Positions 5,793 to 55,886 of a DNA stretch of 64,000 nucleotides are shown one piece after another. The translations under genes and the position numbers were made by a program. The notes beneath the pieces were generated by a model. It saw only the letters and a list, made by a program, of their open reading frames with translations. It had not been told where the DNA came from and searched no databases. How positions within the stretch are numbered: position 1 is the stretch's first letter; each line of letters opens with the position of its first letter. The stretch is from Gemmatimonadota bacterium (GTDB lineage: Bacteria > Gemmatimonadota > Gemmatimonadetes > Gemmatimonadales > GWC2-71-9), in the NCBI GenBank assembly GCA_003221005.1, contig QHTZ01000067.1, forward strand, positions 38,116-102,115, read 5' to 3'.

Positions 5793-6916
5793 CGGCAGCT
5801 CGCGCAAGCCTGCGCATCGCCCTCGTCGCCGAGGACTACTACCCCCAACTGGGGGGCGTCCCGGAGCACGTGCATCATCTGGCCCTCGAGCTCAACCGCC
5901 GTGGCCACGCCGCCACCATCGTCACTTCGCGGATGCGCGGGCCGCAGCGCGATGCCTCGTTCGTGCGCCGCGTGGGCACGAGCGTCGTGCTCTACGCCAA
6001 CGGCGGCGTGTCGCGGATCACCGTCGGGTGGCGGCTCACGCGCCGGCTGACGGAGCTGTTCCAGGCGGGCCGGTTCGACGTCGTTCACATCCACGGCGGG
6101 CTCGCCCCGACCTTTGGCCTCCTCGCGCCGCTGGCCGCCTGGCGTGCCGGGATTCCGGTGGTCGCGACGTTCCATTCCTGGTTTCCGCGCTCCGCCGGCT
6201 ACCGTGTTCTCAAGCGGCCGCTGCAGCGGATGCTCGACCGTCACGCGGCGCTGATCGCCGTGAGCGAGCCCGTGGTCGCCGCGATGTCGCGTTACTTCCG
6301 CGGCGCCTGGGAGATCGTGCCGAACGGCGTGGACGTGGGATACTTCCAGCCCAACGGACGCCGGCCCGGCGATGCCCTCACGCGCGGTCCCCGGCTGCTG
6401 TTCCTGGCGAGACTCGAGCCGAGGAACGGGCTTTCAACCGTGCTCGACGCGATGCCGCGGATCCTCGAGCGCTTCCCGGCGGCCGAGCTGACCGTGGCCG
6501 GCGATGGACCGTGGCGCGGCTATTACGAGCGCCGCGCGCGCTCCCTCGGACCCCGCGTGCGCTTCCTCGGCCGGGTGTTCGGGGACCGCCCGCTGCACTA
6601 CGGCACCGCAGACCTCTATCTCTGTCCAACCACGCGGGCGTCGTTCGGCGTCACCCTGCTCGAGGCGATGGCCTGCGGCACACCGCTCGTCGTATCGGAC
6701 AACGTGGGCTTCCGCGCGGTGCTCGGCGACGGCACCGAGGCCGCCATCGTCCCGAACGACGACCCAGCCGTGTGGGCCGACACAACCATCGCCCTGATCG
6801 AGGATCCGGGGCGACGCGACGCGATGAGCCGGGCCGGACTCGCGAAGGCCGCACGGTTCGCCTGGCCACGGATCGCGGACCAGACGCTCGCCATCTATCA
6901 GCGGATCCTCGCGTGA
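5789..6916 (+). CDS. GT4-family glycosyltransferase (PimA-like)
   Basis: LRIALVAEDYYPQLGGVPEHVHHLALELNRRGH... and a C-terminal E-x7-E-type region (FGVTLLEAMACGTPLVVSD). I trimmed the 519-aa track ORF to the GTG overlapping the upstream stop. Confidence 0.85.
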   Translation: MTAARASLRIALVAEDYYPQLGGVPEHVHHLALELNRRGHAATIVTSRMRGPQRDASFVRRVGTSVVLYANGGVSRITVGWRLTRRLTELFQAGRFDVVHIHGGLAPTFGLLAPLAAWRAGIPVVATFHSWFPRSAGYRVLKRPLQRMLDRHAALIAVSEPVVAAMSRYFRGAWEIVPNGVDVGYFQPNGRRPGDALTRGPRLLFLARLEPRNGLSTVLDAMPRILERFPAAELTVAGDGPWRGYYERRARSLGPRVRFLGRVFGDRPLHYGTADLYLCPTTRASFGVTLLEAMACGTPLVVSDNVGFRAVLGDGTEAAIVPNDDPAVWADTTIALIEDPGRRDAMSRAGLAKAARFAWPRIADQTLAIYQRILA

Positions 6917-7614
6917 TTGCTGCTGCCGTCGCGGGGATCGGGGCGGCCGCCGCCGGCACGCTCGCGCTCGGCGCCTATGCTCCCAACAGCCGCGTGTTTG
7001 GGGACGTGATCGGGCGCGGTCCCCGGAGCTCCCGCACGCTCTACCTGACGTTCGACGACGGCCCGAACCCCACCGCGACGGCGAGCGTCCTGGAGACGCT
7101 CGCGCGAGAGCGCGTCGCCGCTGGGTTCTTCCTGGTCGGGGAGCACGTGCGCCGCTACCCGGAGCTCGCACGGCAGGTCGCCGCTGCCGCTCACGAGGTG
7201 GGAAATCACACGCAGCATCACGTGAAGCTCCATCTGCTCGGGCCGCGGCGCATCCGCCGGGAGCTAGAGGATGCCCACGGGGCGATCAGCGCCGCTGTGG
7301 GACGGTCACCCCGCGCGTTCCGGGCTCCGCACGGCTACCGCAACCCGTTCGTAACGGCGGCGGCGCGCCGCCTTGGCTACCGCGTCGTCGGCTGGACGTT
7401 CGGTGTGTGGGACTCGGACCGCCCGGGGGCGGAGGAGATCCGGCGCCGGGTCCGCGTCAAGGCCAGCCCGGGCGCCATCGTCCTGCTGCACGACGGCGAC
7501 GGCTACGATCCCGCCGGTGACCGCAGCCAGACCGCCGCCGCGCTCCCCGGGGTCATTCGCGACGCACGGGATGCAGGCTACTCATTCCGCCCGCTGGCGG
7601 AGCTGCTCGCGTGA
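6913..7614 (+). CDS. Polysaccharide deacetylase (NodB homology / CE4)
   Basis: LYLTFDDGPNP, HEVGNHTQHH and FRAPHGY are the NodB-domain motifs. The GTG at 6913 overlaps the GT4 stop (GTGA). Confidence 0.85.
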   Translation: MIAAAVAGIGAAAAGTLALGAYAPNSRVFGDVIGRGPRSSRTLYLTFDDGPNPTATASVLETLARERVAAGFFLVGEHVRRYPELARQVAAAAHEVGNHTQHHVKLHLLGPRRIRRELEDAHGAISAAVGRSPRAFRAPHGYRNPFVTAAARRLGYRVVGWTFGVWDSDRPGAEEIRRRVRVKASPGAIVLLHDGDGYDPAGDRSQTAAALPGVIRDARDAGYSFRPLAELLA

Positions 7615-45327: not shown

Positions 45328-46557
45328 TTACGGGTCGAACCGGTCCAGCTTCCGGTCCCGCCGCCGCGCGAGCCAGTAGAGCGGCACGCCCAGGATCAGC
45401 GTCGCCCCTGAGGCGACCCACGCCTCAGCGATCCCCCGTGTGCGCGCGAGCCATCCCCATCCCGTCTGCCCGGCCACGCCACCCACGTTCGCGAAGAATG
45501 AATCGAGCGAGATGATCGTGGCTCGCTGCTGCGACGGGATGTGGGCGTTGAGATAGCCCTGCTTCACCGGCATCCCCACGCCGAGTGCCATGCCATAGAC
45601 GAGGTACAGCCCCACCACCACGTAGAAGTCCCGCAGCAGGCCGCACAGGACTACCGTGACCACCTGCACGACCACTGACGCGATCAGCATTCCGGTGCGC
45701 GAGCGAACGACGCGCGACAGCGGCACGACAAGCGCATTGCCGGCGATCAGCGTGAGCGACGTGAGCGCGGCGATCACCCCCGACACCCACACCGCCTCCC
45801 GCCCCAGCAGGTCCAGGAAGTAGCGCTGCCAGCTGTAGAAGCCGAAGATCATAAAGCTCATCGAGACGAGCGACCCGAGCATCAGCGGCCGGACCACCGG
45901 GTGGTGCAAGCCGTAGCGCATGCCCTCCACGAACACGCGCCGCATCTCCGCCGGCACGCGCGACAACGCGAGCGCACGCGGGGTGTAGCCGAGCTCGCGC
46001 ATCCCGAACCAGGCCAGCGCGAACAACGGCACCACGATTCCCGCCCGCACGAGGTAGGGCACGGCGAGATCGATCTGACCCAGCAAGCCGCCGGCGAGGG
46101 TACCGACCAGCATCGCCGCGCCGAACGCCATCTGACCGCGCGCGAACACCGGCTCGAGCGGCGCGGTGTACCCCGTCGCCTTGAGAGCGTCGACCAGCCA
46201 TGCGTCCACCGCGCCGGTGTAGAACGTGTAGCCGAGTCCCAGAAACACCGACACGGCGGCGAACGGCCAGAAGCCCCACCCGAGCCGCGCGATCGCCACG
46301 TAGCAGAGTGTGGTGACGAACAAGGTGGCGAGGCACAACAGCAGCGAAATACGCCGCCCGAGGGTGTCGGCGACGACGCCGGTGGGGATCTCGAACAGGA
46401 CGTTGCCCAGCGTGAACGCGGCATTCGTGAGCATCACCTGGAAGATGTCCAACCCCGCGTGGAGCTTGAACAGCGTGTCGATGCCCCAGATCAGGGACAT
46501 CGCCAGGTTGAAGAGCCCGGTGATCAGCAGGTAGACGCGGATGATCTGTGCGCTCAC
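45328..46557 (-). CDS. MFS transporter
   Basis: 409 aa with 12 TM-like segments. GVVADTLGRRISL motif. The GTG overlaps the upstream stop (GTGA). Confidence 0.8.
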   Translation of the reverse strand: MSAQIIRVYLLITGLFNLAMSLIWGIDTLFKLHAGLDIFQVMLTNAAFTLGNVLFEIPTGVVADTLGRRISLLLCLATLFVTTLCYVAIARLGWGFWPFAAVSVFLGLGYTFYTGAVDAWLVDALKATGYTAPLEPVFARGQMAFGAAMLVGTLAGGLLGQIDLAVPYLVRAGIVVPLFALAWFGMRELGYTPRALALSRVPAEMRRVFVEGMRYGLHHPVVRPLMLGSLVSMSFMIFGFYSWQRYFLDLLGREAVWVSGVIAALTSLTLIAGNALVVPLSRVVRSRTGMLIASVVVQVVTVVLCGLLRDFYVVVGLYLVYGMALGVGMPVKQGYLNAHIPSQQRATIISLDSFFANVGGVAGQTGWGWLARTRGIAEAWVASGATLILGVPLYWLARRRDRKLDRFDP

Positions 46558-47423
46558 GGAACGTGCGCCTCGAGCCAGTCGTGCGCGATCGCCCGGATGT
46601 CCTGGTGCTGCACGTCGGCCAGCGCATTCAAGCGCCGCATCTCGTCGTCCGAGATCTTGCCGGTCAGCTCGCCGAGCGCGGCCGCCACCTCGGGATGGCG
46701 CCGCAACACCACTTCACGCGCGACGACCGCGGCTTCGTAGGGAGGGAAGTAATGCCGATCGTCTTCCAGGGCGACGAGATCGAGCGCGGCGATCTGACCG
46801 TCCGTCGAGTTGCCGGCGATCATGTCCACCTTTCCGTCGGCGAGCGCGCGGTAGGTGAGTCCCAAGTCCATCGCGGTCGGAGGCGCGCGGAAGGCAAGCC
46901 TGTACACCTGCGACAGCCCGGCGAATCCGTCTGCGCGCTCCAGGAACTCGTAACCGAACCCCGCCTTCCACCGCGGCGCGACGCGCGCCACGTCGGAGAT
47001 CCGCGTCAGGCCATATTGCCGCGCTTCCGTCCGGCGGATCAGAATCGCGAACGTGTTGTTGAAGCCGAACGGCGCGAGCCACCGCAGGCCGAAGCGTGCC
47101 GCATAGTCGCGCGCCACGACTCGCGCCACGCTGTCCCGATCGCTCACCGGGGGGTGCTTGAGCACCGCCGTGAACGCGGTGCCCGTGTACTCGGGATAGA
47201 GATCGATCTGTCCCGCGACGATCGCCTGATGACACACGAACGTGCCACCCAGGTGCAGGCGTCGCTCCACGGGCAGGTGCGCGCGCCGCTCGATCTGCTG
47301 CGCCACGAGCTCGGCGAGCAAGTCGGACTCCGTGAAGTTCTTGGCGCCCACGACGATCCGGTCGTGCCGGGCACACGAACTTGCTGCGGAGAGCGCGAGC
47401 ACCGCGGCGAGCAACGCGAGCAT
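46554..47423 (-). CDS. Quaternary-amine (glycine betaine/choline type, OpuAC-fold) ABC substrate-binding lipoprotein
   Basis: Lipobox LSAASSC. IVVGAKNFTESDLLAELVAQQIE...IDLYPEYTGT is typical of OpuBC/OsmX-type binding proteins. The start could be further upstream (up to 47525). Confidence 0.75.
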   Translation of the reverse strand: MLALLAAVLALSAASSCARHDRIVVGAKNFTESDLLAELVAQQIERRAHLPVERRLHLGGTFVCHQAIVAGQIDLYPEYTGTAFTAVLKHPPVSDRDSVARVVARDYAARFGLRWLAPFGFNNTFAILIRRTEARQYGLTRISDVARVAPRWKAGFGYEFLERADGFAGLSQVYRLAFRAPPTAMDLGLTYRALADGKVDMIAGNSTDGQIAALDLVALEDDRHYFPPYEAAVVAREVVLRRHPEVAAALGELTGKISDDEMRRLNALADVQHQDIRAIAHDWLEAHVP

Positions 47424-47550
47424 GCCGGCCCGGCGTTTCCCGTGCCCTGAAGGGCCGGCTCGGCGTAAACGCGCGTCTTTAAAGACGCGACCTCGGCCGA
47501 GCCGGCGTTTCAACGCACGGACCACACGTGAGGCCAGGTGGGAGTCCTGC

Positions 47551-48180
47551 TCACCTTGCCCGCCACACCAGCCGCCGCTCGAGCAGCGCGAACAGGCCGT
47601 CCGCCGCCAGCGCCATCAGCGCCGCCGGGATCGCGCCCGCGAGGATCAAGGTGTCGTCCACCACCGCCACGCCGCGGAAGACGTAGACGCCGAGCCCGCC
47701 CGCGCCGATCGCGGCGCCGATCGTAGCCACGCCCACGCTCACGACCGTCGCGACGCGCACACCCGCGAGAATGACCGCCGCAGCGAGGGGCAGCTCCACC
47801 AGCCGCAGCAGCTCGGCGTCCGTCATCCCCATGCCGCGACCGGCTTCGCGGATGGCTGGGTCCACGCCCGCGATTCCCGTGTAGGTGTTGCGCACGATGG
47901 GGAGTAGCGCGTACACGATCAGCGCGGTGATCGCCGTCCAGAACCCGATGCCGAAGATCGGAATGAGGATCCCGAAGAGCGCGAGGCTCGGGATCGTCTG
48001 GAACACCCCCGCGAGCCCGAGCACGGGGGGCCGCCACGCGGGTCGGCGGGTGAGCACCACGCCGAGGGGAATCCCCACGAGTGCCGCGGCACCGGTCGAG
48101 AGTACCACCAAGACGAGGTGCTGACCGACGAGACCGAGTGCCTCATGGGCGTTGCGCGCGAAGAACGCTACCAACCTCAT
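47551..48180 (-). CDS. ABC transporter permease (OpuBB-like)
   Basis: 209 aa, 5-6 TM, with an EAA-like loop IREAGRGMGMTDAELLRLVELP. Confidence 0.8.
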   Translation of the reverse strand: MRLVAFFARNAHEALGLVGQHLVLVVLSTGAAALVGIPLGVVLTRRPAWRPPVLGLAGVFQTIPSLALFGILIPIFGIGFWTAITALIVYALLPIVRNTYTGIAGVDPAIREAGRGMGMTDAELLRLVELPLAAAVILAGVRVATVVSVGVATIGAAIGAGGLGVYVFRGVAVVDDTLILAGAIPAALMALAADGLFALLERRLVWRAR

Positions 48181-48929
48181 GCCGCCTCCAGGAAGCGGCG
48201 GACCTCGGGGTGCTCGTTGCGACGGAATTCGTCGGGGGTACCGAGGAACAGCAGCCGTCCCGCATGCATCAACCCGATGCGCGTCCCCAGGAGCAGCCCC
48301 TCCCGCACGTCGTGGGTCACGAACACCATGCCCTTTCCCAGCCGCCCCTCGAGGGCGCGGAATTCCTGCTGCAGTTCGAAGCGCGTAATGGGATCGAGTG
48401 CGCCGAACGGCTCGTCCAGGAGCAGCAGCGGCGGGTCGGCAGCGAGCGCGCGCGCCACCCCGACCCGCTGCCGCTGACCGCCCGAGAGCTGGTGCGGATA
48501 GCGTCCACCGAACGCCTCCGGGTCGAGCCCCACGAGCGCGAGCAGCTCGCGCACCCGGGCCGCGATCCGCTCTGGAGGCCAGCGTTCGAGCCGCGGCACG
48601 AGTCCCGCGTTCTCGGCCACCGTGAAATGCGGCAGCAGACCCACCTCCTGAATCACGTAGCCGATCCGCCGCCGCAGCGACGTGGGCTCGAGCGCCGCGG
48701 TCCGCTGCCCCGCCACCAACACCTCCCCCACCGAAGGCTCGAGCAGACGGTTGATGAGCTTAAGTGTGGTCGTCTTCCCAGAGCCGCTGCGGCCGAGGAG
48801 CACGAGGGTCTCTCCTGCACCCACAGTGAAGGACACGTCCCGGACGATCGGCAGGACCCGTCCCTCCTCCCCCGTCCCTCTTCCCGGCAACGTATAGCCG
48901 AGTCCCCGGACCTCGAGCACGGCGCTCAT
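48177..48929 (-). CDS. ABC transporter ATP-binding protein
   Basis: Walker A GRSGSGKTT, signature LSGGQRQRV, Walker B LLLLDEP. The ATG at 48927-48929 overlaps the upstream stop (ATGA). Confidence 0.9.
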   Translation of the reverse strand: MSAVLEVRGLGYTLPGRGTGEEGRVLPIVRDVSFTVGAGETLVLLGRSGSGKTTTLKLINRLLEPSVGEVLVAGQRTAALEPTSLRRRIGYVIQEVGLLPHFTVAENAGLVPRLERWPPERIAARVRELLALVGLDPEAFGGRYPHQLSGGQRQRVGVARALAADPPLLLLDEPFGALDPITRFELQQEFRALEGRLGKGMVFVTHDVREGLLLGTRIGLMHAGRLLFLGTPDEFRRNEHPEVRRFLEAA

Positions 48930-49879
48930 TGCGCCCCCGCCCCCACCAGCACCATTTGAAAGCGGCCGTCTTCGCTCGTCCCGCGCCAGCGCTGCCCGAG
49001 GCCGGCATCTCGCAGGATTCGCAGGAACGTGTCGGCGTCGTACTTGTACGAGTGGTTCATTTCCAGCCGCTCGCCGGCACCGAGGGTCAGGGACTCTCCG
49101 CCGAGCCGGGCGGCGACGTCGCGGGTCGCCCGGAAGTGCTTGGTGAGGGGATGCAGCCCGGGGACGCGCGCGTCCTCGCGGTCCTCGAACACGAGCTCGC
49201 CGTCGGCCTCGGTGATCCCGACGGCGTGGAGCGGCGCCCACGCGAAGCGCCGGTTCAGGGGGTTGTCATAGCCAGCGACGGTGGCCTGGGCGGCGTAGAT
49301 CTCGCCGTCCACGAGGAGCAGGTCGTCCCCGCGGAGCAGTTTCCGCAGGGCCCGCGTCTCGACCAGCGGATCGAATGCGCCGAGGGTGTTGCCCAGGAGC
49401 AAAATCAGGCGCGGCGGCGTTTCGGGATTAGGCGCCAGTGCAGTGAGGTGGTCGGTCCGTGTGAAGTCGGCCTTGACGCCCTGGGCGGGGAGCCCCGCGG
49501 CGACGGCGCCCTGACACGCGAGCTCGAGCAACGCCTGGCTCGTGTCTACGGGCGTGTAGGAGACGCGGATCCCGTGGGGTCGCAGCGCTTCGATGAGAAG
49601 CAGGTCCTTGTCCCCCTGCCCCGAGCCCAGGCTCAGGACCTCGAGCGGGCCGGGGGGTATGTAGCCAGCGAGGTCGGCGGCGGACCGAGCGATGAGCGAG
49701 CGCGACCGCACGTAGTTCCGGTAGGCGCCGTCCGAGCAGAGGGCGAGCCAGGCTCGGACGGACAGCGGAAACCAATAGAAGAATTTCTCCGGGAGCCGAC
49801 GCGCGCGAAACGCGGCGACGAACTCGTCGGCGAGCGCGGTCTCGGTAAGTAGCGTGTGAGTGACGATCACGGAGTTCAA
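48926..49879 (-). CDS. Methyltransf_33 / EgtD-family SAM-dependent N-methyltransferase (divergent)
   Basis: LPEKFFYW..., LSLGSGQGDKDLLLIEAL, LLLGNTLGAFDP and ...LEMNHSYKYDADTFLRILRDAGL follow the layout of histidine N-alpha-methyltransferase-type enzymes. The His-binding N-terminal motifs are not well conserved. Confidence 0.55.
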   Translation of the reverse strand: MNSVIVTHTLLTETALADEFVAAFRARRLPEKFFYWFPLSVRAWLALCSDGAYRNYVRSRSLIARSAADLAGYIPPGPLEVLSLGSGQGDKDLLLIEALRPHGIRVSYTPVDTSQALLELACQGAVAAGLPAQGVKADFTRTDHLTALAPNPETPPRLILLLGNTLGAFDPLVETRALRKLLRGDDLLLVDGEIYAAQATVAGYDNPLNRRFAWAPLHAVGITEADGELVFEDREDARVPGLHPLTKHFRATRDVAARLGGESLTLGAGERLEMNHSYKYDADTFLRILRDAGLGQRWRGTSEDGRFQMVLVGAGAQ

Positions 49880-49889
49880 GAGTTACCGG

Positions 49890-49918
49890 TTGACGGGTCT
49901 GGCGGCAACCCGTATGCT
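49890..49918 (+). promoter_or_regulatory. Sigma70-like promoter for the peptide/AKR/DUF692 operon
   Basis: TTGACG, a 17-nt spacer, then TATGCT. It sits in a locally lower-GC divergent intergenic region. Confidence 0.45.
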
Positions 49919-49969
49919 ACGTTTCGTCTGCCGTCGTCTGATTTCCACGTAAAGACGGAGGATATTCGC

Positions 49970-50062
49970 ATGCAGATCGTCGAGACGCAGGAGCTCGTGC
50001 CCACCTGTCATCGGCCTGAGGTCGTGGAGACGAGCGAGCTGCAGCCAACCTGTCACTCCTGA
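49970..50062 (+). CDS. 30-aa candidate RiPP precursor with two tandem ETxELxPTCH units
   Basis: GGAGG lies 9 nt upstream of the ATG. The ORF encodes MQIVETQELVPTCHRPEVVETSELQPTCHS. It is first in an operon with a DUF692 enzyme and RRE-like domains. Confidence 0.6.
   Translation: MQIVETQELVPTCHRPEVVETSELQPTCHS
49982..50056 (+). repeat. Two 30-nt direct repeats (45-nt period) encoding the ETxELxPTCH units
   Basis: gagacgcaggagctcgtgcccacctgtcat and gagacgagcgagctgcagccaacctgtcac. Confidence 0.8.
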
Positions 50063-50076
50063 CGCAGGGCGGCTGG

Positions 50077-51201
50077 ATGCAAGAGGGGGCCCGGACCGAT
50101 TTCGGGCCCCTTTCGCGTTTCCTGGGCACGGAGGCGCGACTGGGGTTCGGGGGCTGGGCGGTGGGCGGCGCGGGCTGGGGGACGCCAGACGACACGCACG
50201 AGCGCGAGGCCGCGATCCGGCGCGCCGTCGAGCGGGGCGTCACGTTCTTCGACACCGCGCCGACGTACGGTGACGGCGAGTCCGAGCGACTGCTGGGCCG
50301 CGCGCTCGGAACCGTGCGCGAGCGGGTGGCGATCGCCACCAAGGTCGGCCCGCGCGACGATCCACGCGCCTCACTCGAAGCGTCGCTGCGCCGCCTCACC
50401 ACGGACTGCGTGGACCTGGTGCAGCTGCACGAAGCGCTCGAACGGTGGGAATGGCAACTCGAAGCGCTCTATCGGCTGCAGCTCGAGGGAAAGGCCCTCG
50501 CGATCGGGCTCTGCAACGCCACTCACCTGCAGGTCGCGCGGGCGCTGACCATCGCTCCCCTGGCGACGTATCAGGGCACCTACAACCTGTTCGATCGCGA
50601 CGTAGAAGAGCGCGAGCTGCCACTGTGCCGCGAACGTGGCCTCGCGTTCCTGGCATTCCGGCCGCTCGCCGCAGGCCTGCTCACCGGCAAGTACCGGGAG
50701 CCTCCCGCCTTCCCGGACGATGACCACCGCCGCAAGGTCTATTGGTTCAAGGGGAAGGAGTTCGAGCGCCGCCAGCGGACGATCGAGCGGCTGCGGCGCG
50801 TTGCGCGCCGGGAGGGCGTGTCGCTGCTCGAGCTCGCCCTGGGGTGGCTGCGCGCGCGGCCGGGGGTGAACATGGTCCTGGTGGGCGCGAGAAACCGGTC
50901 GCAGGTCGAGGAGGCGTTCGTCCCGGGCGTCGGGCCGCTGACAGCGGACACGGTGAACGAGATCGACCTCATAGTCCGCGAGGTCTTCCGCCCGGGCCGC
51001 GGCACGGCGCAACTCGAGCGGGCGGCCGCGACGTGGGGAGAGCGCGAGCGCTTCATCGCGGCGCGGCTCGACGGGAAGACTCGCTACGAAGCGATCGCCG
51101 CCGAGTGGACCGACCGCGGCGAACAGCCGATGATCGCGGCGCAGATCAAGGTGTTCGTGGACCAGTTGGCTGAGCAACGGTTGGTTGACGCCGACGGCTG
51201 A
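50077..51201 (+). CDS. Aldo/keto reductase with a C-terminal PqqD/RRE-like extension
   Basis: AKR core FFDTAPTYGDGESERLLG, IATKVG and VDLVQLHE (Asp/Tyr/Lys/His all present). An extra tail of about 55 aa reads ERERFIAARLDGKTRYEAIAAEWTDRGEQPMIAAQIKVFVDQLAEQRLV. Confidence 0.75.
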   Translation: MQEGARTDFGPLSRFLGTEARLGFGGWAVGGAGWGTPDDTHEREAAIRRAVERGVTFFDTAPTYGDGESERLLGRALGTVRERVAIATKVGPRDDPRASLEASLRRLTTDCVDLVQLHEALERWEWQLEALYRLQLEGKALAIGLCNATHLQVARALTIAPLATYQGTYNLFDRDVEERELPLCRERGLAFLAFRPLAAGLLTGKYREPPAFPDDDHRRKVYWFKGKEFERRQRTIERLRRVARREGVSLLELALGWLRARPGVNMVLVGARNRSQVEEAFVPGVGPLTADTVNEIDLIVREVFRPGRGTAQLERAAATWGERERFIAARLDGKTRYEAIAAEWTDRGEQPMIAAQIKVFVDQLAEQRLVDADG

Positions 51202-51207
51202 CCGCTG

Positions 51208-51993
51208 ATGGCTCTCATGGTCGGGGCGTTCTACAACCCTCAGCTCGGCGCTGAGCTCGCTGCGGCGAAGGGCATCGACCACCTCGCCATGGCCGACCCG
51301 CCGGCAGCACACGATGCGCACTGGCCCACCATCCGCGAGCGCTACACGCTGCTGCTCCACGACTACCTCGGCCAGCTCTCCGAGCCGCTCGATGAACGCT
51401 CGATCGAGCGTGCCCGCTCCCTCGCTACGTTGTACCGCACACCGTGGATCGCCGAGCATTTCCAGTGCCTGCACACGGAAGACGGGCGCTACAACATCAA
51501 CTACGTGTTCCCGCCGCTCTACACCGACGAGTTTCTGGAGCGTTTCGTCGCCAACGCACGCGCGCTCCAGGCGCGGCTCGAGCAGCCGCTCGTGATGGAG
51601 AACATCCCCGGCTTCTTCGACGTCAAGGCGAGCCAGCTCCCGGAGCCTGTCTGGCTCGCGCGTTTCTTCGACGCGACCGAGGTCGGCTTTCTGCTCGACC
51701 TGCCGCACGTTTGGCTCGAGGCCCACTACCGCGGCATGAAGCCTGAAGCGTGGCTCGCGCAATTCCCGCTCGAGCACGTAGTCGAGCTGCACGTGGCCGG
51801 CGTCGAGGAGGACGAGGACCTGCGAGGTCCCTGGATCGCGCCCACCGCCCCGTCGGAGGCCATGCTCGCGTTTCTGGCGCACGCCGTCACTCGCTGTCCC
51901 CGGGCCAAGGCTGTCACGTTCGACGCATTTTCGCCGTCGCTCACCGCCGACGTGCTGTTCCGGAGCGTTGAACGGATCCGGGGGGCGCTGTGA
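51208..51993 (+). CDS. DUF692-family TIM-barrel enzyme (MNIO; MbnB/TglH/ChrH/BufB family)
   Basis: LLLHDYLGQLSEPLD, TPWIAEHF, LVMENIPGFF and GFLLDLPHVWLEAHYRG...VVELHVAG follow the DUF692 motif order. Confidence 0.7.
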   Translation: MALMVGAFYNPQLGAELAAAKGIDHLAMADPPAAHDAHWPTIRERYTLLLHDYLGQLSEPLDERSIERARSLATLYRTPWIAEHFQCLHTEDGRYNINYVFPPLYTDEFLERFVANARALQARLEQPLVMENIPGFFDVKASQLPEPVWLARFFDATEVGFLLDLPHVWLEAHYRGMKPEAWLAQFPLEHVVELHVAGVEEDEDLRGPWIAPTAPSEAMLAFLAHAVTRCPRAKAVTFDAFSPSLTADVLFRSVERIRGAL

Positions 51994-52760
51994 CCGACCG
52001 GGCACTCCAGGACCTGGTGCTGCGCGCGCTGGCCGACGCCTCGTTCCGGGCGTCATCCGCCTGGCGGCAGCGTGCGCTCGCGGACCCCGCGAAGGTGGAG
52101 CGGTTCGCACGCTTCCTCGCGCGGCACTTCTACTACGAGCGGATCGTGCACTTCTTCAAGTACTCGGGGGCGCTGGCGCGTGTGACCGGCCGGCGACCAG
52201 AGGGGACGCTCCGCGGTGCCGAATTCGAAGCGCTGCTCCCCGTGGTCGTACTCGGCAGTCGGCAGACGGCTCGCGCGGTCGCCGATCTCGTCGTGCGCGA
52301 AGTGAAGGGCGGCGCCCCCGTGGCCTCGATCCCATATCGCGACGACTTGCTGCGCTACGAGGCGGCGATGATGGTCGCGGAGGCGGGGCCGAGGGTGTGG
52401 CGAGAGAACGGGAAGGGGGAAGAGGGAAGAGGAACGGGTGTCCCGGAAACCGCTGAAGGAACAGTGCTGCTGGATCTCGCCTACGACCTACCGGCGGTCC
52501 TGCCGCAGCTGCTCCAGCCGTGGACCGAGGTGCCGCAGGCGCCGCCGCGACCGGTGCGACTCCTCGTCGCGCGCTCGCCCCGCGGCCGGGTCGCGGTCGC
52601 TCGCACCGACAGCGCGGTGGCGCGCGTGGTCGAGCTCGCGGACGGCCGCCGCACCCTCGAAGAGCTCGCACGCGCGGCCGGGTTGCCGCGGAACGAGCTC
52701 GAGGCCACGCTCGCCGGGCTCACCGACCTCGGCGCCGTTCGCTTCGGGACGGGCAGCTGA
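51990..52760 (+). CDS. MNIO partner protein with a C-terminal PqqD/RRE-like winged helix
   Basis: The GTG overlaps the DUF692 stop (GTGA). The C-terminus reads VARVVELADGRRTLEELARAAGLPRNELEATLAGLTDLGAV. Confidence 0.6.
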   Translation: MTDRALQDLVLRALADASFRASSAWRQRALADPAKVERFARFLARHFYYERIVHFFKYSGALARVTGRRPEGTLRGAEFEALLPVVVLGSRQTARAVADLVVREVKGGAPVASIPYRDDLLRYEAAMMVAEAGPRVWRENGKGEEGRGTGVPETAEGTVLLDLAYDLPAVLPQLLQPWTEVPQAPPRPVRLLVARSPRGRVAVARTDSAVARVVELADGRRTLEELARAAGLPRNELEATLAGLTDLGAVRFGTGS

Positions 52761-52771
52761 GCGCCGTGGCG

Positions 52772-53593
52772 TTACGCGGGCTTTCGCGCGCGCACGAACG
52801 CGCCCATGATCCTGCCGCTCACCTCGCGCGCCAGGACATCGACGTCGAGCCCGGCCCCAGCCAGCACGGCCCGCGCATCCTCGAAGCTGTAGATCCGGGT
52901 CGGCTCGATCCCGACGTTTTCGAAGCCGTTCGCGCTAAGCAGCGCCTTGAACTCTTCCTCCTCGAGGGCGCCGGCCACGCATCCCACCCACAGCTCCATG
53001 CTGCGGCGCACCTCACGCGGGATCTCCCCCCGCACCACGACGTCGGAGACGGCGAACCGGCCACCGGGCTTGAGCACGCGAAACGCCTCGGCCAGCACCC
53101 GCCGCTTATCGGCGGCGAGGTTGATGACGCAGTTCGAGATGATGACGTCCACCGACGCGTCCGGAAGAGGAATGCGCTCGATGTCCCCTTTCAAGAACTC
53201 GACGTTCTCGACCCCGGCCTTCCGCTGGTTTTCGCGCGCCAGGGCGAGCATCTCGTCGGTCATGTCGAGCCCGTACGCCTTGCCGGTCGGCCCCACGCGC
53301 CGGGCGGAGAGCAGCACGTCGATGCCCCCGCCGGAGCCGAGGTCGAGCACCACTTCTCCCGGGAGCAGCTCGGCGAGCGCAGTTGGGTTGCCGCAGCCGA
53401 GCGAAGCGAGCACGGCTTGCTCGGGGAGGGACGCGGTCTCAGCAGCCTCGTACAGGTTGGATGTGACGGGATCGCAGCCGCCGCTCGCTGCGGCGCCGCC
53501 GCAACACGAGCTTCCCTGCCCGTGCAGCACGCGCAGCGCCGCCTCTCCGTACTTCGCCCGTACGGTGTCCTTGATCACGGTGTCGTCGGTCAT
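52772..53593 (-). CDS. arsM: Arsenite S-adenosylmethyltransferase-like methyltransferase
   Basis: N-terminal Cys pairs (GSSCCGG...GGCD) and motif I VVLDLGSGGGIDVLL. LKPGGRFAVSDVV is typical of ArsM. Confidence 0.8.
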   Translation of the reverse strand: MTDDTVIKDTVRAKYGEAALRVLHGQGSSCCGGAAASGGCDPVTSNLYEAAETASLPEQAVLASLGCGNPTALAELLPGEVVLDLGSGGGIDVLLSARRVGPTGKAYGLDMTDEMLALARENQRKAGVENVEFLKGDIERIPLPDASVDVIISNCVINLAADKRRVLAEAFRVLKPGGRFAVSDVVVRGEIPREVRRSMELWVGCVAGALEEEEFKALLSANGFENVGIEPTRIYSFEDARAVLAGAGLDVDVLAREVSGRIMGAFVRARKPA

Positions 53594-53659: not shown

Positions 53660-53756
53660 GTGCGCGAGCGCAATGAACCAGAGACTGTTCCGAGGACCTG
53701 GGCTTCGCCCGTGGTCCTCGTTCGTTTCTGGAGGCTTTCACTGGAAGCGAGGCCGC

Positions 53757-53954
53757 ATGCAGGTGACGCTGGGCGAGAACGACCGACTGGACTTCGTCCT
53801 GAAGAAGTTTCGCCGTCAGATCGCCAAGGCCGGGCTGTTCCAGGACATGAAGCGCAAGCGCTTCTTCGAGGGCCCGCGCGCTCAGCGACGGCGGAAGGAC
53901 AAGGCAGCGGCCCGCCGCAAGGCGAAATCCGCGCACCGTCGCGAACACCAATAA
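53757..53954 (+). CDS. rpsU: 30S ribosomal protein S21
   Basis: [57 protein letters not shown]... Confidence 0.9.
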
Positions 53955-53971
53955 GTAAGGAGTGGCATCAG

Positions 53972-54181
53972 ATGGCACGCATCACCGGTACCGTGAAGTG
54001 GTTCAACGACGCGAAGGGCTTCGGCTTCATCACGCCCGAGAACGGCGAAAAGGACTGCTTCGTGCATCACACCGCGATCCAGGCGGAAGGTTTCAAGACA
54101 CTGGCTGAAGGTCAGCGCGTCGAGTTCGACGTCGTGCAGGGGCAAAAGGGCCCAGCGGCGCAGAACGTCGTCAAGCTCTAA
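53972..54181 (+). CDS. cspA: Cold-shock protein (CspA family)
   Basis: [45 protein letters not shown] (RNP1/RNP2 motifs). Confidence 0.95.
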
Positions 54182-54254: not shown

Positions 54255-55886
54255 CTAGCTCACCATCTGCGCGGTGGCATGGGGGATGACCTTCAGGAAC
54301 GCCGCCACGACGCGTTCGGACCACCACGCCCGGCAGTTCATGATCTCCTCGAGCGCGCGCTCCGCGCTCACGGCCGCATGCTCCGTGCGCGAGTTTGTGA
54401 GCGAATCGTAGACATCCAGGATGCCGACGATCTGCGCGGACAGCGGGATCTCGTCTCCCTTGAGCCGATCGGGATACCCGCTCCCGTCGCAACGCTCATG
54501 ATGCCAGCGGATGATGGGCTTCAGGTCCCACGGAAACTCGACGTTCCCGAGCAGCTCGATCCCCCAGATAGGATGCATCTGCAAGAGTTCGCGCTCGGCG
54601 CGGGTGAGCGGCCCGGGCTTGTGGAGAATCTCGTGGGGGACGCGTACCTTGCCGACGTCATGGAGATAGGCGCCGAGCAGAATGGTCGTCTCCTCCTGGT
54701 CGTTTAGCCCGAGGGCCCGCGCCACGGCGACCGCGTTTTGCGCCACGCGCTCGCAATGACCGAACGTGCAGCCGTCGCTCGATTCGATCGACTGGCCCCA
54801 CGCGCGCACCACCGCCAGATACGTGGCTTCGAGCTCGGCCAACTTGCCGCCTACGTAGACCAGGTCCGCTCGGGCGTCCAGTTGGCGGAATAGGCCGTGG
54901 GCAACGTTGAGCACCCCGAGCGCGTCCTGGTTCCGGCCCATCGCCTGATGCAGGATGGCCAATTCGCGGGAGGCCTCCGCCTCGCCGAGGACGGAGCCCG
55001 CCGCGACGGCCAGCTCGATCGCCGCCAGGAACCGCGCCTCCGCGAGCGCCGGACGGCCCGTCTCGCGGTACACCATCCCGAGCACCCGATAAGCCCCGGC
55101 CTTGGGCCCACGCGCCCCGAGGTGATCGAACACGGCGAGCGCTTCCTCGGCCTTCTGGCGCGCGTCCTCGAACCGCTGGCGCATCACGTCCACCTCGGCG
55201 TGATTGACGAGACAGAGTCCGCGCAGATGGAGGTCGCCGACCCGCTCGGCGAGGGACCGGGCCTCGCGGAAATAGCAGTCTGCCGCATGGAACCGTCCCC
55301 GATCCGCGCTCACCATCCCCAGGTTGTGGTACGCGATCGCGCACCCCTGCGCGTCACCGGAGCCGCGGTACGCCTCGAGGGACCGCTCGTAGCGCGCGAT
55401 GGCCTCGCGCAGCTCGCCCTGGATGTTCGCGAGGATGCCGAGATTCTGCTCGACGCGAGCGCGCAGCTCCTTCCTCGATCCGCCGAGCTCGAGCGCCTCG
55501 AGAAACGTCAGCCGGGCGTCCTCGACCTTCCCGGCAGCCAGGTGGAGGCCGCCCAACGTATTCAACGCTTCCGCGGCAAGTAGCTCGTTGCCGATCTGCC
55601 GCGCGATCTCGTAGCTCCTGCGGCACAACGCGTGGGCCTGACCGGACTCATTCCCGTGGTGCCTGAGGATCGCAAGCCGCCGCAGCGCTTCGGCCAGCAC
55701 CGTGTGCTCCCCGGCCTGCTCCGCGGCGGCGATGGCGGATCCGAAGCGCGCAATCGCTTCGGGGATCCGTCCCGCGCGCTCCTGCTGCCGCGCCTCGTGC
55801 AGCAGGTCCGCGCTGCGACGCATCACGCCGAGGGAGCGGCGCGGGGTCGCCCGGTCGGACACCCAGCCCTCACCAGGCGATGGCAT
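54255..55886 (-). CDS. TPR-repeat protein with a C-terminal HD-GYP domain (c-di-GMP phosphodiesterase type)
   Basis: TPR-like repeats, then HCERVAQNAV...GAYLHDVGK...HHERCDGSGYP. The start is either 55886 or the ATG at 55823. Confidence 0.85.
   Translation of the reverse strand: MPSPGEGWVSDRATPRRSLGVMRRSADLLHEARQQERAGRIPEAIARFGSAIAAAEQAGEHTVLAEALRRLAILRHHGNESGQAHALCRRSYEIARQIGNELLAAEALNTLGGLHLAAGKVEDARLTFLEALELGGSRKELRARVEQNLGILANIQGELREAIARYERSLEAYRGSGDAQGCAIAYHNLGMVSADRGRFHAADCYFREARSLAERVGDLHLRGLCLVNHAEVDVMRQRFEDARQKAEEALAVFDHLGARGPKAGAYRVLGMVYRETGRPALAEARFLAAIELAVAAGSVLGEAEASRELAILHQAMGRNQDALGVLNVAHGLFRQLDARADLVYVGGKLAELEATYLAVVRAWGQSIESSDGCTFGHCERVAQNAVAVARALGLNDQEETTILLGAYLHDVGKVRVPHEILHKPGPLTRAERELLQMHPIWGIELLGNVEFPWDLKPIIRWHHERCDGSGYPDRLKGDEIPLSAQIVGILDVYDSLTNSRTEHAAVSAERALEEIMNCRAWWSERVVAAFLKVIPHATAQMVS

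Follow-up and report, generated by a model that had tools for sequence, protein, structure and literature searches.

What is made by a gene cassette that joins a 30-residue peptide with repeated Cys-His motifs to a multinuclear non-heme iron oxidase (MNIO)? The question arises from a locus in a 64,000-nt window (the whole stretch of DNA that was analyzed, to which all coordinates refer unless another locus is named) of Gemmatimonadota bacterium GCA_003221005.1, a soil member of the Gemmatimonadales (contig QHTZ01000067.1). The original prediction for this locus was a cassette of the RiPP type (for peptides made by ribosomes and modified after translation), consisting of a short Cys peptide, an aldo/keto reductase (AKR), an MNIO of the DUF692 family, and a partner protein. 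Comparison with related loci supports a conserved cassette of peptide (66/66 loci), MNIO, and partner (61/61 loci), but its limits had been drawn too narrowly and omitted an invariant divergent Methyltransf_33 gene that is present in 66/66 loci. Judging from conservation and linkage, no other gene accompanies the MNIO more faithfully than this methyltransferase, and the core of the system is made up of methyltransferase, peptide, MNIO, and partner. We consider it probable, if well short of certain, that the MNIO and its partner modify the Cys in each peptide repeat and that the methyltransferase belongs to the same pathway.

A leaderless repeat peptide under purifying selection

The coding sequence of the peptide (49970-50062) starts with the ATG at 49970 and translates into MQIVETQELVPTCHRPEVVETSELQPTCHS (30 aa). 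Its relatives were sought at 80 loci with a relative of the MNIO, obtained from a scan of one genome per species and belonging mostly to metagenome-assembled genomes of Gemmatimonadales, besides 4 Gemmatimonadaceae, 2 bins labelled Actinomycetota, and 6 Terriglobales/Acidobacteriales. Peptide counts are restricted to the 66 loci with at least 2.6 kb of upstream DNA, and every one of them (66/66) has a homologous small open reading frame (ORF) directly upstream; the ribosome-binding site (RBS) 5' of it is kept in related loci. The original prediction had asked whether ETxELxPTCH-type peptides and an AKR co-occur in relatives; these loci carry the peptide together with the MNIO, and 59/66 also have the AKR.

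The family is built from a unit of 12-13 residues with the consensus [IVL]-V-E-x-x-E-[LVI]-x-P-[TS]-C-H that is repeated in 2-4 tandem copies: two in Gemmatimonadales, three in Terriglobales, three to four in the Actinomycetota-labelled bins, and four in Gemmatimonadaceae. The expected Cys flanked by Thr and His is therefore real, but its twofold repetition is just one state of a family with 2-4 units. Unit 1 starts at residue 3 of the peptide so that there is no leader, in line with the earlier reading of a peptide with almost none, and in one bin (L068) the units abut with zero spacer (VVEADTLEPTCH VVEAEELEPTCH). Across the family, the peptides end in CH or CH-x and never in Asp, and the Terriglobales peptide terminates exactly at ...PTCH. 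Among 52 distinct two-unit alleles, the variable sites are distributed 13/8/25 over codon positions 1/2/3 (pN/pS 0.23); Cys, His, Pro, and two Glu are invariant with codons that vary synonymously, and constraint is confined to VExxE[LV]xP[TS]CH. This pattern of purifying selection rules out a chance ORF and marks the peptide as a real conserved gene. The original prediction would have been refuted by a small ORF that is not conserved in related genomes, and both the count of 66/66 and the pN/pS value show conservation. In the six-frame translation of the 64-kb window, P[TSA]CH occurs twice, both times inside the peptide ORF. No Pfam or NCBIfam model matches the peptide or three longer homologues.

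The promoter (TTGACG-17-TATGCT) and the GGAGG RBS that had been proposed ahead of the 30-codon ORF are both present in the sequence, and the promoter is the single sigma-70-like site in 49700-53000, where 0.1 would be expected from shuffles. It lies in the 90-nt gap that separates the peptide operon from the divergent methyltransferase gene. Three genes follow the peptide on the same strand as predicted, at distances of 14 nt (peptide to AKR) and 6 nt (AKR to MNIO), and the start of the partner gene overlaps the stop of the MNIO gene by the 4 nt GTGA (Table 1). A promoter element of the form TTACGGGTTGAC-N10-GCAACCCGTA is conserved in 59/84 loci, and its arms form inverted repeats over the -35 and -10 hexamers; in relatives, the arms (TACGGGTTG / CAACCCGTA) stand about 13 nt apart and span both hexamers. 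The copy of the window is imperfect with a mismatch in the left arm, and a repeat search with a 6-nt seed found none there. It seems likely from this arrangement that the inverted repeat is an operator for a dimeric repressor or regulator of both divergent operons.

Table 1. Features of the locus in window coordinates
Feature	Position	Strand	Evidence or remark
Promoter with candidate operator TTACCGGTTGACG-N-GCAACCCGTATGCT	49883..49920	+	-35 TTGACG 49890-49895, 17-nt spacer, -10 TATGCT 49913-49918
GGAGG RBS	49957..49961	+	8 nt 5' of peptide ATG; read from the sequence
Precursor/scaffold peptide, 30 aa, units IVETQELVPTCH + VVETSELQPTCH, leaderless	49970..50062	+	Homologues in 66/66 loci
Aldo/keto reductase (AKR), accessory tailoring enzyme	50077..51201	+	PF00248 E 1.2e-59
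MNIO (DUF692) oxidase, 261 aa	51208..51993	+	PF05114 94.3 bits
MNIO partner protein, 256 aa	51990..52760	+	AlphaFold2 model, Foldseek, ApyI and NGO1945_C matches
EgtD-like S-adenosylmethionine (SAM) methyltransferase (Methyltransf_33), fourth core gene, divergent	48926..49879	-	PF10017 E 4.2e-24
ATP-binding cassette (ABC)/major facilitator superfamily (MFS) operon 3' of methyltransferase	45328..48929	-	Start/stop overlaps; linked in Gemmatimonadota only
ABC ATPase	48177..48929	-	ProV-type match
ABC permease	47551..48180	-	Permease match
Substrate-binding protein (SBP), OpuC/EgtU class	46554..47525	-	OsmF-type match
MFS transporter	45328..46557	-	GTGA overlap with SBP gene

An isolated MNIO clade with a TglI-like partner

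The assignment of 51208-51993 to the DUF692/MNIO family was confirmed by a match to PF05114 (E 1e-26) well above the Pfam gathering score of 25 bits. At the level of individual NCBIfam equivalogs, the best match is ApyH with 105 bits against a cut-off of 400 and the second is BufB with 86 against 310, followed by HvfB with 51 against 360 and ChrH with 17 against 600. Scores so far under the cut-offs agree with the earlier statement that the cassette is none of the methanobactin, 3-thiaglutamate/pearlin, chryseobasin, and bufferin systems, and the same holds for aminopyruvatide. When compared to the PDB, the family profile of the MNIO matched TglH (68.8 bits), 3BWW (63.7 bits), and MbnB (7dz9; 24.1 bits, E 2.4e-4, across 90 residues). 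Candidate metal ligands H51, H84, E131, D164, H195, D202/D204, and D239 are invariant across phyla. The first five of them correspond to conserved positions in 3BWW and TglH, and none of these five varies among 20 sequences that represent three phyla. An exhaustive HMMER search against 1.84 billion representatives retrieved only three full-length clusters at the 50% level, which share 74, 56, and 47% identity with the query; beyond them, identity drops to 34%. By these sequence comparisons, the MNIO is an isolated clade that stands nearest to TglH and fits no characterized MNIO family. Its abundance in soil Gemmatimonadales amounts to 855 clusters at 90% identity (E <= 1e-5).

The sister clade at 34% identity (L085:112-2663 and L089:1502-4085) keeps a trio of Methyltransf_33, MNIO-like, and partner genes, and several conserved His and Asp residues of its MNIO-like proteins are replaced (e.g., H51Q and H195Q in L085). 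The short gap beside the MNIO-like gene of these two loci shows no Cys-His peptide. Such loci may represent a catalytically different or inactive paralogous system.

The third gene had been described as a partner protein with a C-terminus resembling a RiPP recognition element (RRE), and structure prediction agrees with this description. The AlphaFold2 model (40 homologues; mean predicted local distance difference test, pLDDT, of 86.3) places an N-terminal helical domain ahead of a predicted C-terminal domain of strands and three helices that is of the RRE type. Foldseek searches with this model returned as best matches TglI in the TglHI holoenzyme (8hi7_A; E 1e-5, TM 0.53), 8hci_A, and NGO1945 (3dee; E 1.1e-4), and both TglI and NGO1945 are reference MNIO partner proteins (PMC12452194). 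Profile matches are weak, with ApyI as the best NCBIfam match (E 7.2e-6, 25.5 bits against a cut-off of 200) next to PF22106 NGO1945_C (E 1.4e-3). Neither a DUF2063 nor an MbnC signature was found in the partner with Pfam and NCBIfam, and for this reason it corresponds to the "PME-type 2" class that accompanies precursors without signal peptides (PMC12452194).

The operon tolerates insertions between MNIO and partner, where an LssY_C protein of 400 aa is found in 19 loci (L010:3111-4313 and 18 others). A secreted alpha/beta hydrolase is inserted between AKR and MNIO, and a beta-propeller-like protein occurs in further loci; inserts other than LssY_C lie at L049:5825-6976 and L058:7783-8730. 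We considered the inserted LssY_C, alpha/beta hydrolase, and beta-propeller proteins as well as DUF4760 and DUF1800 proteins as core parts and rejected all of them as lineage-specific.

Could the small ORF be something other than the substrate of these enzymes, i.e., a regulatory upstream ORF that senses Cys and His or an unmodified metal-binding microprotein, with MNIO and partner acting on a product encoded elsewhere? It is very short and sits between the promoter and the first enzyme gene, and the two loci of the 34% sister clade have an MNIO-like gene with no visible CH peptide beside it. Yet the peptide consists of 2-4 self-contained units in which P[TS]CH is invariant across phyla, it strictly co-occurs with a partner bearing the predicted RRE-type domain, the 14 nt to the next gene hold no terminator-like structure, and each unit offers only two Cys/His codons, unlike attenuator leaders. 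Nor would an attenuator-type leader peptide readily be expected to vary in its number of self-contained units. No Rfam family matched anywhere in the window at the gathering threshold, and therefore no riboswitch or leader RNA is at hand as an explanation. We regard a non-substrate ORF as very improbable.

Cys-His pairs are good metal ligands, and a peptide metallophore similar to bufferins, oxazolins, or methanobactin has to be weighed against the same results. Cys would then be converted to a 5-thiooxazole or oxazolone-thioamide that forms a Cu(I)/soft-metal site with the His imidazole in each repeat, and the modified peptide itself would be the product, decorated by methyltransferase and AKR. 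Products of this kind are the commonest outcome for Cys-targeting MNIOs, oxazolins similarly have repeated Cys motifs (PMC12452194), and BufB is the second NCBIfam match of our MNIO. However, the MNIO remains far under the thresholds of BufB, HvfB, and MbnB, its profile gives MbnB 24 bits compared to 69 for TglH, and the partner is TglI-like and lacks DUF2063 and MbnC signatures. In addition, the peptide has no signal peptide and no linked peptide exporter or protease.

An EgtD-like methyltransferase and linked transporters

The divergent methyltransferase is of the same family as EgtD, which N-alpha-methylates L-histidine in the synthesis of ergothioneine. It matches PF10017 with 85.6 bits (cut-off 23) and scores 61.6 bits with the EgtD equivalog TIGR03438, below the cut-off of 290.9. 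All Terriglobales are among the loci that encode it (41-43% identity), and it is also found beside the 56%-identity MNIO (L086/L087) and the 34%-identity MNIO-like genes (L085, L089). We aligned 23 of these methyltransferases with M. tuberculosis EgtD and took the roles of residues from PMC8593015, according to which EgtD binds its substrate via Asn166, Glu282, Tyr206, and Ser284; Tyr39, Phe47, and Tyr56 were left out of the pocket comparison because their alignment was unreliable. All 23 proteins keep the SAM motif (equivalents of G86, G88, and D141), T163, the carboxylate binders Y206/S284, and K286, and all 23 have Asn166 replaced by Ala/Gly, Glu282 by Asn/Ser, Thr213 by Arg, and Met252 by Lys; in EgtD, Glu282 and Thr213 lie on the imidazole side. 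Since Y206/S284 are kept and other pocket residues are replaced, the substrate probably still has a free alpha-carboxylate and is not plain histidine. The extra basic residues in the pocket suggest an additional anionic group on this substrate.

In the window, the methyltransferase gene and the ABC ATPase gene overlap by ATGA, as do the ATPase and permease genes, and the SBP and MFS genes overlap by GTGA. Judging from these junctions, the methyltransferase, ABC, and MFS genes are one translationally coupled operon. The transporter operon is present in 45/50 Gemmatimonadota loci with enough flanking sequence, and an EamA exporter that is weakly YddG-like is inserted in 24 loci. Compared to the PDB, the SBP matches the quaternary-amine binders OpuBC/OpuCC/EgtU with 160-197 bits, ergothioneine transporter domains among them, and favors no single ligand. 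The Acidobacteriota loci have the four core genes by themselves, with unrelated genes around them.

Two further observations concern the surroundings of the core. A gene for a D-aminopeptidase-like protein with beta-lactamase fold lies near it in about 10 Gemmatimonadales loci and one of Terriglobales. In L086 (2362-4551, 7777-8379) and L087, it is flanked by genes for a TonB-dependent receptor and an Fe/Mn superoxide dismutase, which mildly suggests metal or oxidative-stress biology.

For the metallophore explanation, this genomic context cuts both ways. The receptor and dismutase around the core in L086/L087 would suit it, as would the ABC importer that is linked in Gemmatimonadota. By contrast, this importer belongs to a small quaternary-amine class, and it is not obvious what an EgtD-family enzyme that keeps its alpha-carboxylate binders would do to an internal residue of a peptide. 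Taken together with the oxidase and partner data, we consider a metallophore, in the sense of the chalkophore-like product suggested in the original prediction, a possible but somewhat unlikely outcome.

A lineage-specific reductase with a weakly PqqD-like tail

The original prediction placed an AKR-RRE fusion in the cassette. Its AKR domain (residues 21-299) is clear from the PF00248 match and the tetrad D59/Y64/K89/H118, but core membership is not, because the gene is found in 59/66 loci. AKR is absent from all six Terriglobales, from the acidobacterial-type loci L086/L087, and from L047, and L012 is without an AKR match as well. In L047 (~6870-7000) and L012 (~1100-1260), which are both Gemmatimonadales, the first AKR codons (MHEGARTD...) remain after the peptide stop, and the AKR is therefore dispensable and its loss secondary. 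This distribution identifies it as a lineage-specific accessory tailoring enzyme and not as part of the core.

Beyond the AKR domain, a helical tail of ~75 aa (residues ~300-374) had been read as a PqqD-like winged helix. What stands of this claim is a helix-only match: 15/18 orthologous tails match PF05402 (PqqD) with a best E of 3.4e-5, limited to profile positions 21-67, the helical two-thirds. The tail of the window itself remains under the threshold (E 0.013, 16.3 bits; cut-off 23.4), and the match does not demonstrate an RRE. A profile of the tail found nothing in the PDB, and its single-sequence model shows no strands and is unusable (pLDDT 53). Aligned to the C-terminal helical part of the partner with hhalign, the tail gave a weak match that is in register (probability 12%, E 0.0023). 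We consider the RRE label for this tail plausible.

A proposed pathway and its weight

What follows is deduced from which gene families are present, how well they are conserved, and how they are linked; this holds for all chemical steps, for release of the product, and for the idea that it is a small molecule. In the proposed pathway, the peptide would serve as a leaderless scaffold in which each unit has its own recognition segment, [IVL]-V-E-x-x-E-[LV], and a P-[TS]-C-H site. The C-terminal RRE-type domain of the partner would dock each unit via the VExxEL segment, and the MNIO would use its iron cluster and O2 to oxidize the Cys of each unit with the adjacent His as a co-ligand or reaction partner. 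The EgtD-like enzyme, with its pocket remodelled to be more basic, would then methylate a nitrogen of a His-containing product with free carboxylate. In Gemmatimonadota, the AKR with its PqqD-like tail may additionally reduce a carbonyl on an intermediate. The methyltransferase would be co-translated in this phylum with a quaternary-amine-type ABC importer, and the MFS and EamA proteins would act as small-molecule exporters.

The product that we tentatively favor, with less than even confidence, is a small N-methylated (betaine-like) thiol-/sulfur-histidine compound released from every repeat. By analogy, 3-thiaglutamate, PQQ, and mycofactocin are likewise built on peptides. Release of a small molecule is favored because the units are self-sufficient and vary in copy number as in multi-core scaffolds and because TglHI, the nearest characterized holoenzyme, uses a peptide to assemble a small thiol amino acid. 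It is also favored because the EgtD-like enzyme keeps its carboxylate site, because small-molecule or betaine types make up the linked transporters, with no peptide exporter among them, and because the terminal His of the Terriglobales peptide already has a free carboxylate. The known EgtD-family enzymes methylate the alpha-amines of aromatic amino acids.

Several points weigh against release of a betaine-like compound. The loci have no protease, C-S lyase, or peptide exporter gene in common, which leaves release unexplained. The methyltransferase is without Asn166, which holds the alpha-amino group in EgtD, so that the acceptor atom is uncertain. The Acidobacteriota loci lack the ABC transporter and exporters, and no particular betaine is singled out by the match of the SBP. 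Furthermore, most characterized Cys-directed MNIOs keep their product in the peptide as thiooxazole or oxazolone-thioamide, and metal-binding sites of this kind would combine with His into a credible chalkophore.

A more specific version of this pathway would be a ribosomal route to a thiohistidine-type betaine. The MNIO would move or couple the Cys sulfur to the neighboring His, with the Cys-His dipeptide as the true substrate, and the unit would be excised and N-methylated by the EgtD-like enzyme. The resulting ergothioneine- or ovothiol-like compound or Cys-His heterocyclic betaine would be recaptured by the EgtU-class ABC transporter. We regard this version as unlikely.

As another alternative, the MNIO might modify the peptide in some other way, via an in-peptide Cys-His cross-link, backbone cleavage, or a change of His or Thr, and the product would be a different kind of peptide such as a signal or antibiotic. 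The reported substrates of MNIOs are diverse (Asp, Asn, Phe, homocitrulline), extrapolation from known enzymes is weak for an isolated clade, and P, T/S, C, and H are all constrained in the unit. Conversely, only Cys and His are strictly invariant, genes for immunity, export, or a protease are not present, and the neighboring methyltransferase and transporters suggest an amino-acid-like molecule, which in our view makes such chemistry quite improbable.

A TGA variant, arsenic-related genes, and flanking ORFs

One relative deviates at the Cys codon itself. In L084 (Logan ERR14790938 contig), MNIO and partner form a single fusion protein of 550 aa (47% identity), and the counterpart of window 49970-50062 (L084:217-279) is an ORF reading MQNAKLEVETVETEQIRPQ-TGA-CAC-TGA (...VETEQIRPQ-TGA-H-stop) with the TGA at the position of Cys. 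A hairpin of 16 bp with a GU-containing loop begins 1 nt past this TGA (-19.6 kcal/mol, z -2.0) and is compatible with a bacterial selenocysteine insertion sequence (SECIS); Rfam gave no match. Metagenome scans with narrow and broad DNA patterns did not find a second TGA-His case: all 45 broad-pattern matches were without MNIO, and the two best-looking ones are chance. A protein search with the fusion enzyme gave no usable relatives. The TGA may be a selenocysteine codon, a nonsense mutation, or an assembly error, and in the first case a selenium analogue (selenoneine-like) would be implied.

On the other side of the core, the partner gene converges with a gene for an arsenite methyltransferase (arsM; window 52772-53593, - strand), which reaches 366 bits with NF008823 (cut-off 263). 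In three Terriglobales loci (L075:2118-2774, L077:644-1291, and L079:4772-5425), the EgtD-like gene adjoins an arsM of this subfamily. In at least 15 loci (e.g., L081:11542-11886 and L022:9759-10121), the partner gene is directly followed by one for an ArsC/Spx-family (PF03960) protein of 115-120 aa with zero Cys, which therefore cannot be a conventional arsenate reductase or Spx-type redox switch. We rejected a link to arsenic and counted neither gene in the system, since ArsM is absent from the other Gemmatimonadales loci and the ArsC-like protein is Cys-less; the recurrence of ArsM beside the core may be a coincidence. Beyond arsM, translations inspected by eye show ORFs resembling ribosomal protein S21 and a CspA-type cold-shock protein (window 53740-54181, + strand) and a large TPR-like protein with HD-type C-terminus (window 54255-55886, - strand).

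Novelty and significance

The claim that the cassette is undescribed has held up. In the literature, including the 2025 MNIO landscape survey and the 2025 sequence-similarity-network study, we found no MNIO linked to Methyltransf_33, AKR, Gemmatimonadota, ergothioneine, or a peptide of this kind, and we found no curated family model for the whole system. The landscape survey drew its sequences from the NCBI protein database and from fully assembled genomes, and RefSeq-based surveys would have missed this clade because it is nearly confined to uncultured lineages.

Peptide chemistry without precedent is being traced to MNIO enzymes at a fast-growing rate, and to our knowledge every newly characterized MNIO clade so far gave a new reaction. 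The logic suggested here would be new in combining a leaderless scaffold with a recognition segment in each repeat and an invariant Cys-His core, and the obligatory pairing of an MNIO with an EgtD-family methyltransferase has not been described previously. If the product were a small sulfur-histidine betaine, the system would constitute a fourth, ribosomal route to thiohistidine-type antioxidants or metal ligands and explain what a conserved gene set does in a soil phylum that is dominant but poorly understood. If it were a metallophore, chalkophore-like chemistry would be extended to Gemmatimonadota and Acidobacteriota. New chemistry is in our view a realistic prospect, and a categorically new route to thiohistidine-type compounds a less probable one.

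Comparison with known systems

The closest precedent is the TglHI/pearlin system of Pseudomonas syringae, which forms 3-thiaglutamate. TglH is the nearest solved MNIO, TglI the nearest partner structure, and the Cys-containing peptide lacks a signal peptide in both systems. A peptide scaffold is what TglH uses to form a small thiol amino acid (PMC12452194, PMC9016710), and TglHI thus sets the precedent for an MNIO working in this way. The differences are nevertheless considerable. Sequence identity to TglH is low, and our system adds an EgtD-like methyltransferase and an AKR and has no dedicated release protease. The scaffold of TglHI is a 50-residue peptide with Cys appended at its C-terminus, whereas ours is a leaderless tandem repeat with an encoded Cys that sits at an internal or penultimate position and always precedes His; no tRNA-dependent Cys ligase of the PEARL (TglB) type was found among the conserved neighbors.

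The aminopyruvatide system ApyHI shares the top NCBIfam matches (ApyH for the MNIO and ApyI for the partner), and both partners would be of "PME-type 2" (PMC12452194). At our locus, however, the scores of 105 and 25.5 bits stay far below the equivalog cut-offs of 400 and 200, and ApyH targets a C-terminal Asp. According to PMC11117315, apy clusters encode a B12-radical-SAM enzyme and a P450, neither of which is present here.

Bufferins and oxazolins (BufBC, HvfBC) likewise involve Cys-targeting MNIOs, oxazolin precursors with repeated Cys motifs, and products that bind metal. Their precursors have a Sec signal peptide and a DUF2063 (PME-type 1) partner, and both of these are missing here, where BufB and HvfB reach 86 of 310 and 51 of 360 bits, respectively. 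Methanobactin biosynthesis (MbnABC) pairs an MbnB-type MNIO with MbnC, compared to the mere 24 bits for MbnB and a partner without MbnC-type match in our system.

The methyltransferase shares with EgtD the PF10017 fold family, the SAM motif, T163, Y206, and S284 as well as linkage to an EgtU-class SBP gene. It differs in its TIGR03438 score (61.6 of 290.9 bits) and in the replacement of N166, E282, T213, and M252, and the locus is without EgtB, EgtC, and EgtE genes. Fungal dikaritin RiPP pathways have repeat precursors and use an N-methyltransferase of this general kind, which would be a functional parallel. As for tailoring enzymes fused to PqqD/RRE domains, the resemblance consists of the PF05402 matches of the AKR tail in 15/18 orthologues and covers the helical two-thirds only. 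In sum, the locus has the generic features of MNIO peptide maturation, i.e., the Pfam domain, the partner fold, and an adjacent conserved short precursor gene. Judged by its genes, the system therefore belongs among the MNIO-partner systems of the RiPP/pearlin kind and stands apart from TglHI, ApyHI, bufferins/oxazolins, methanobactin, and EgtD in the features that define each of them.

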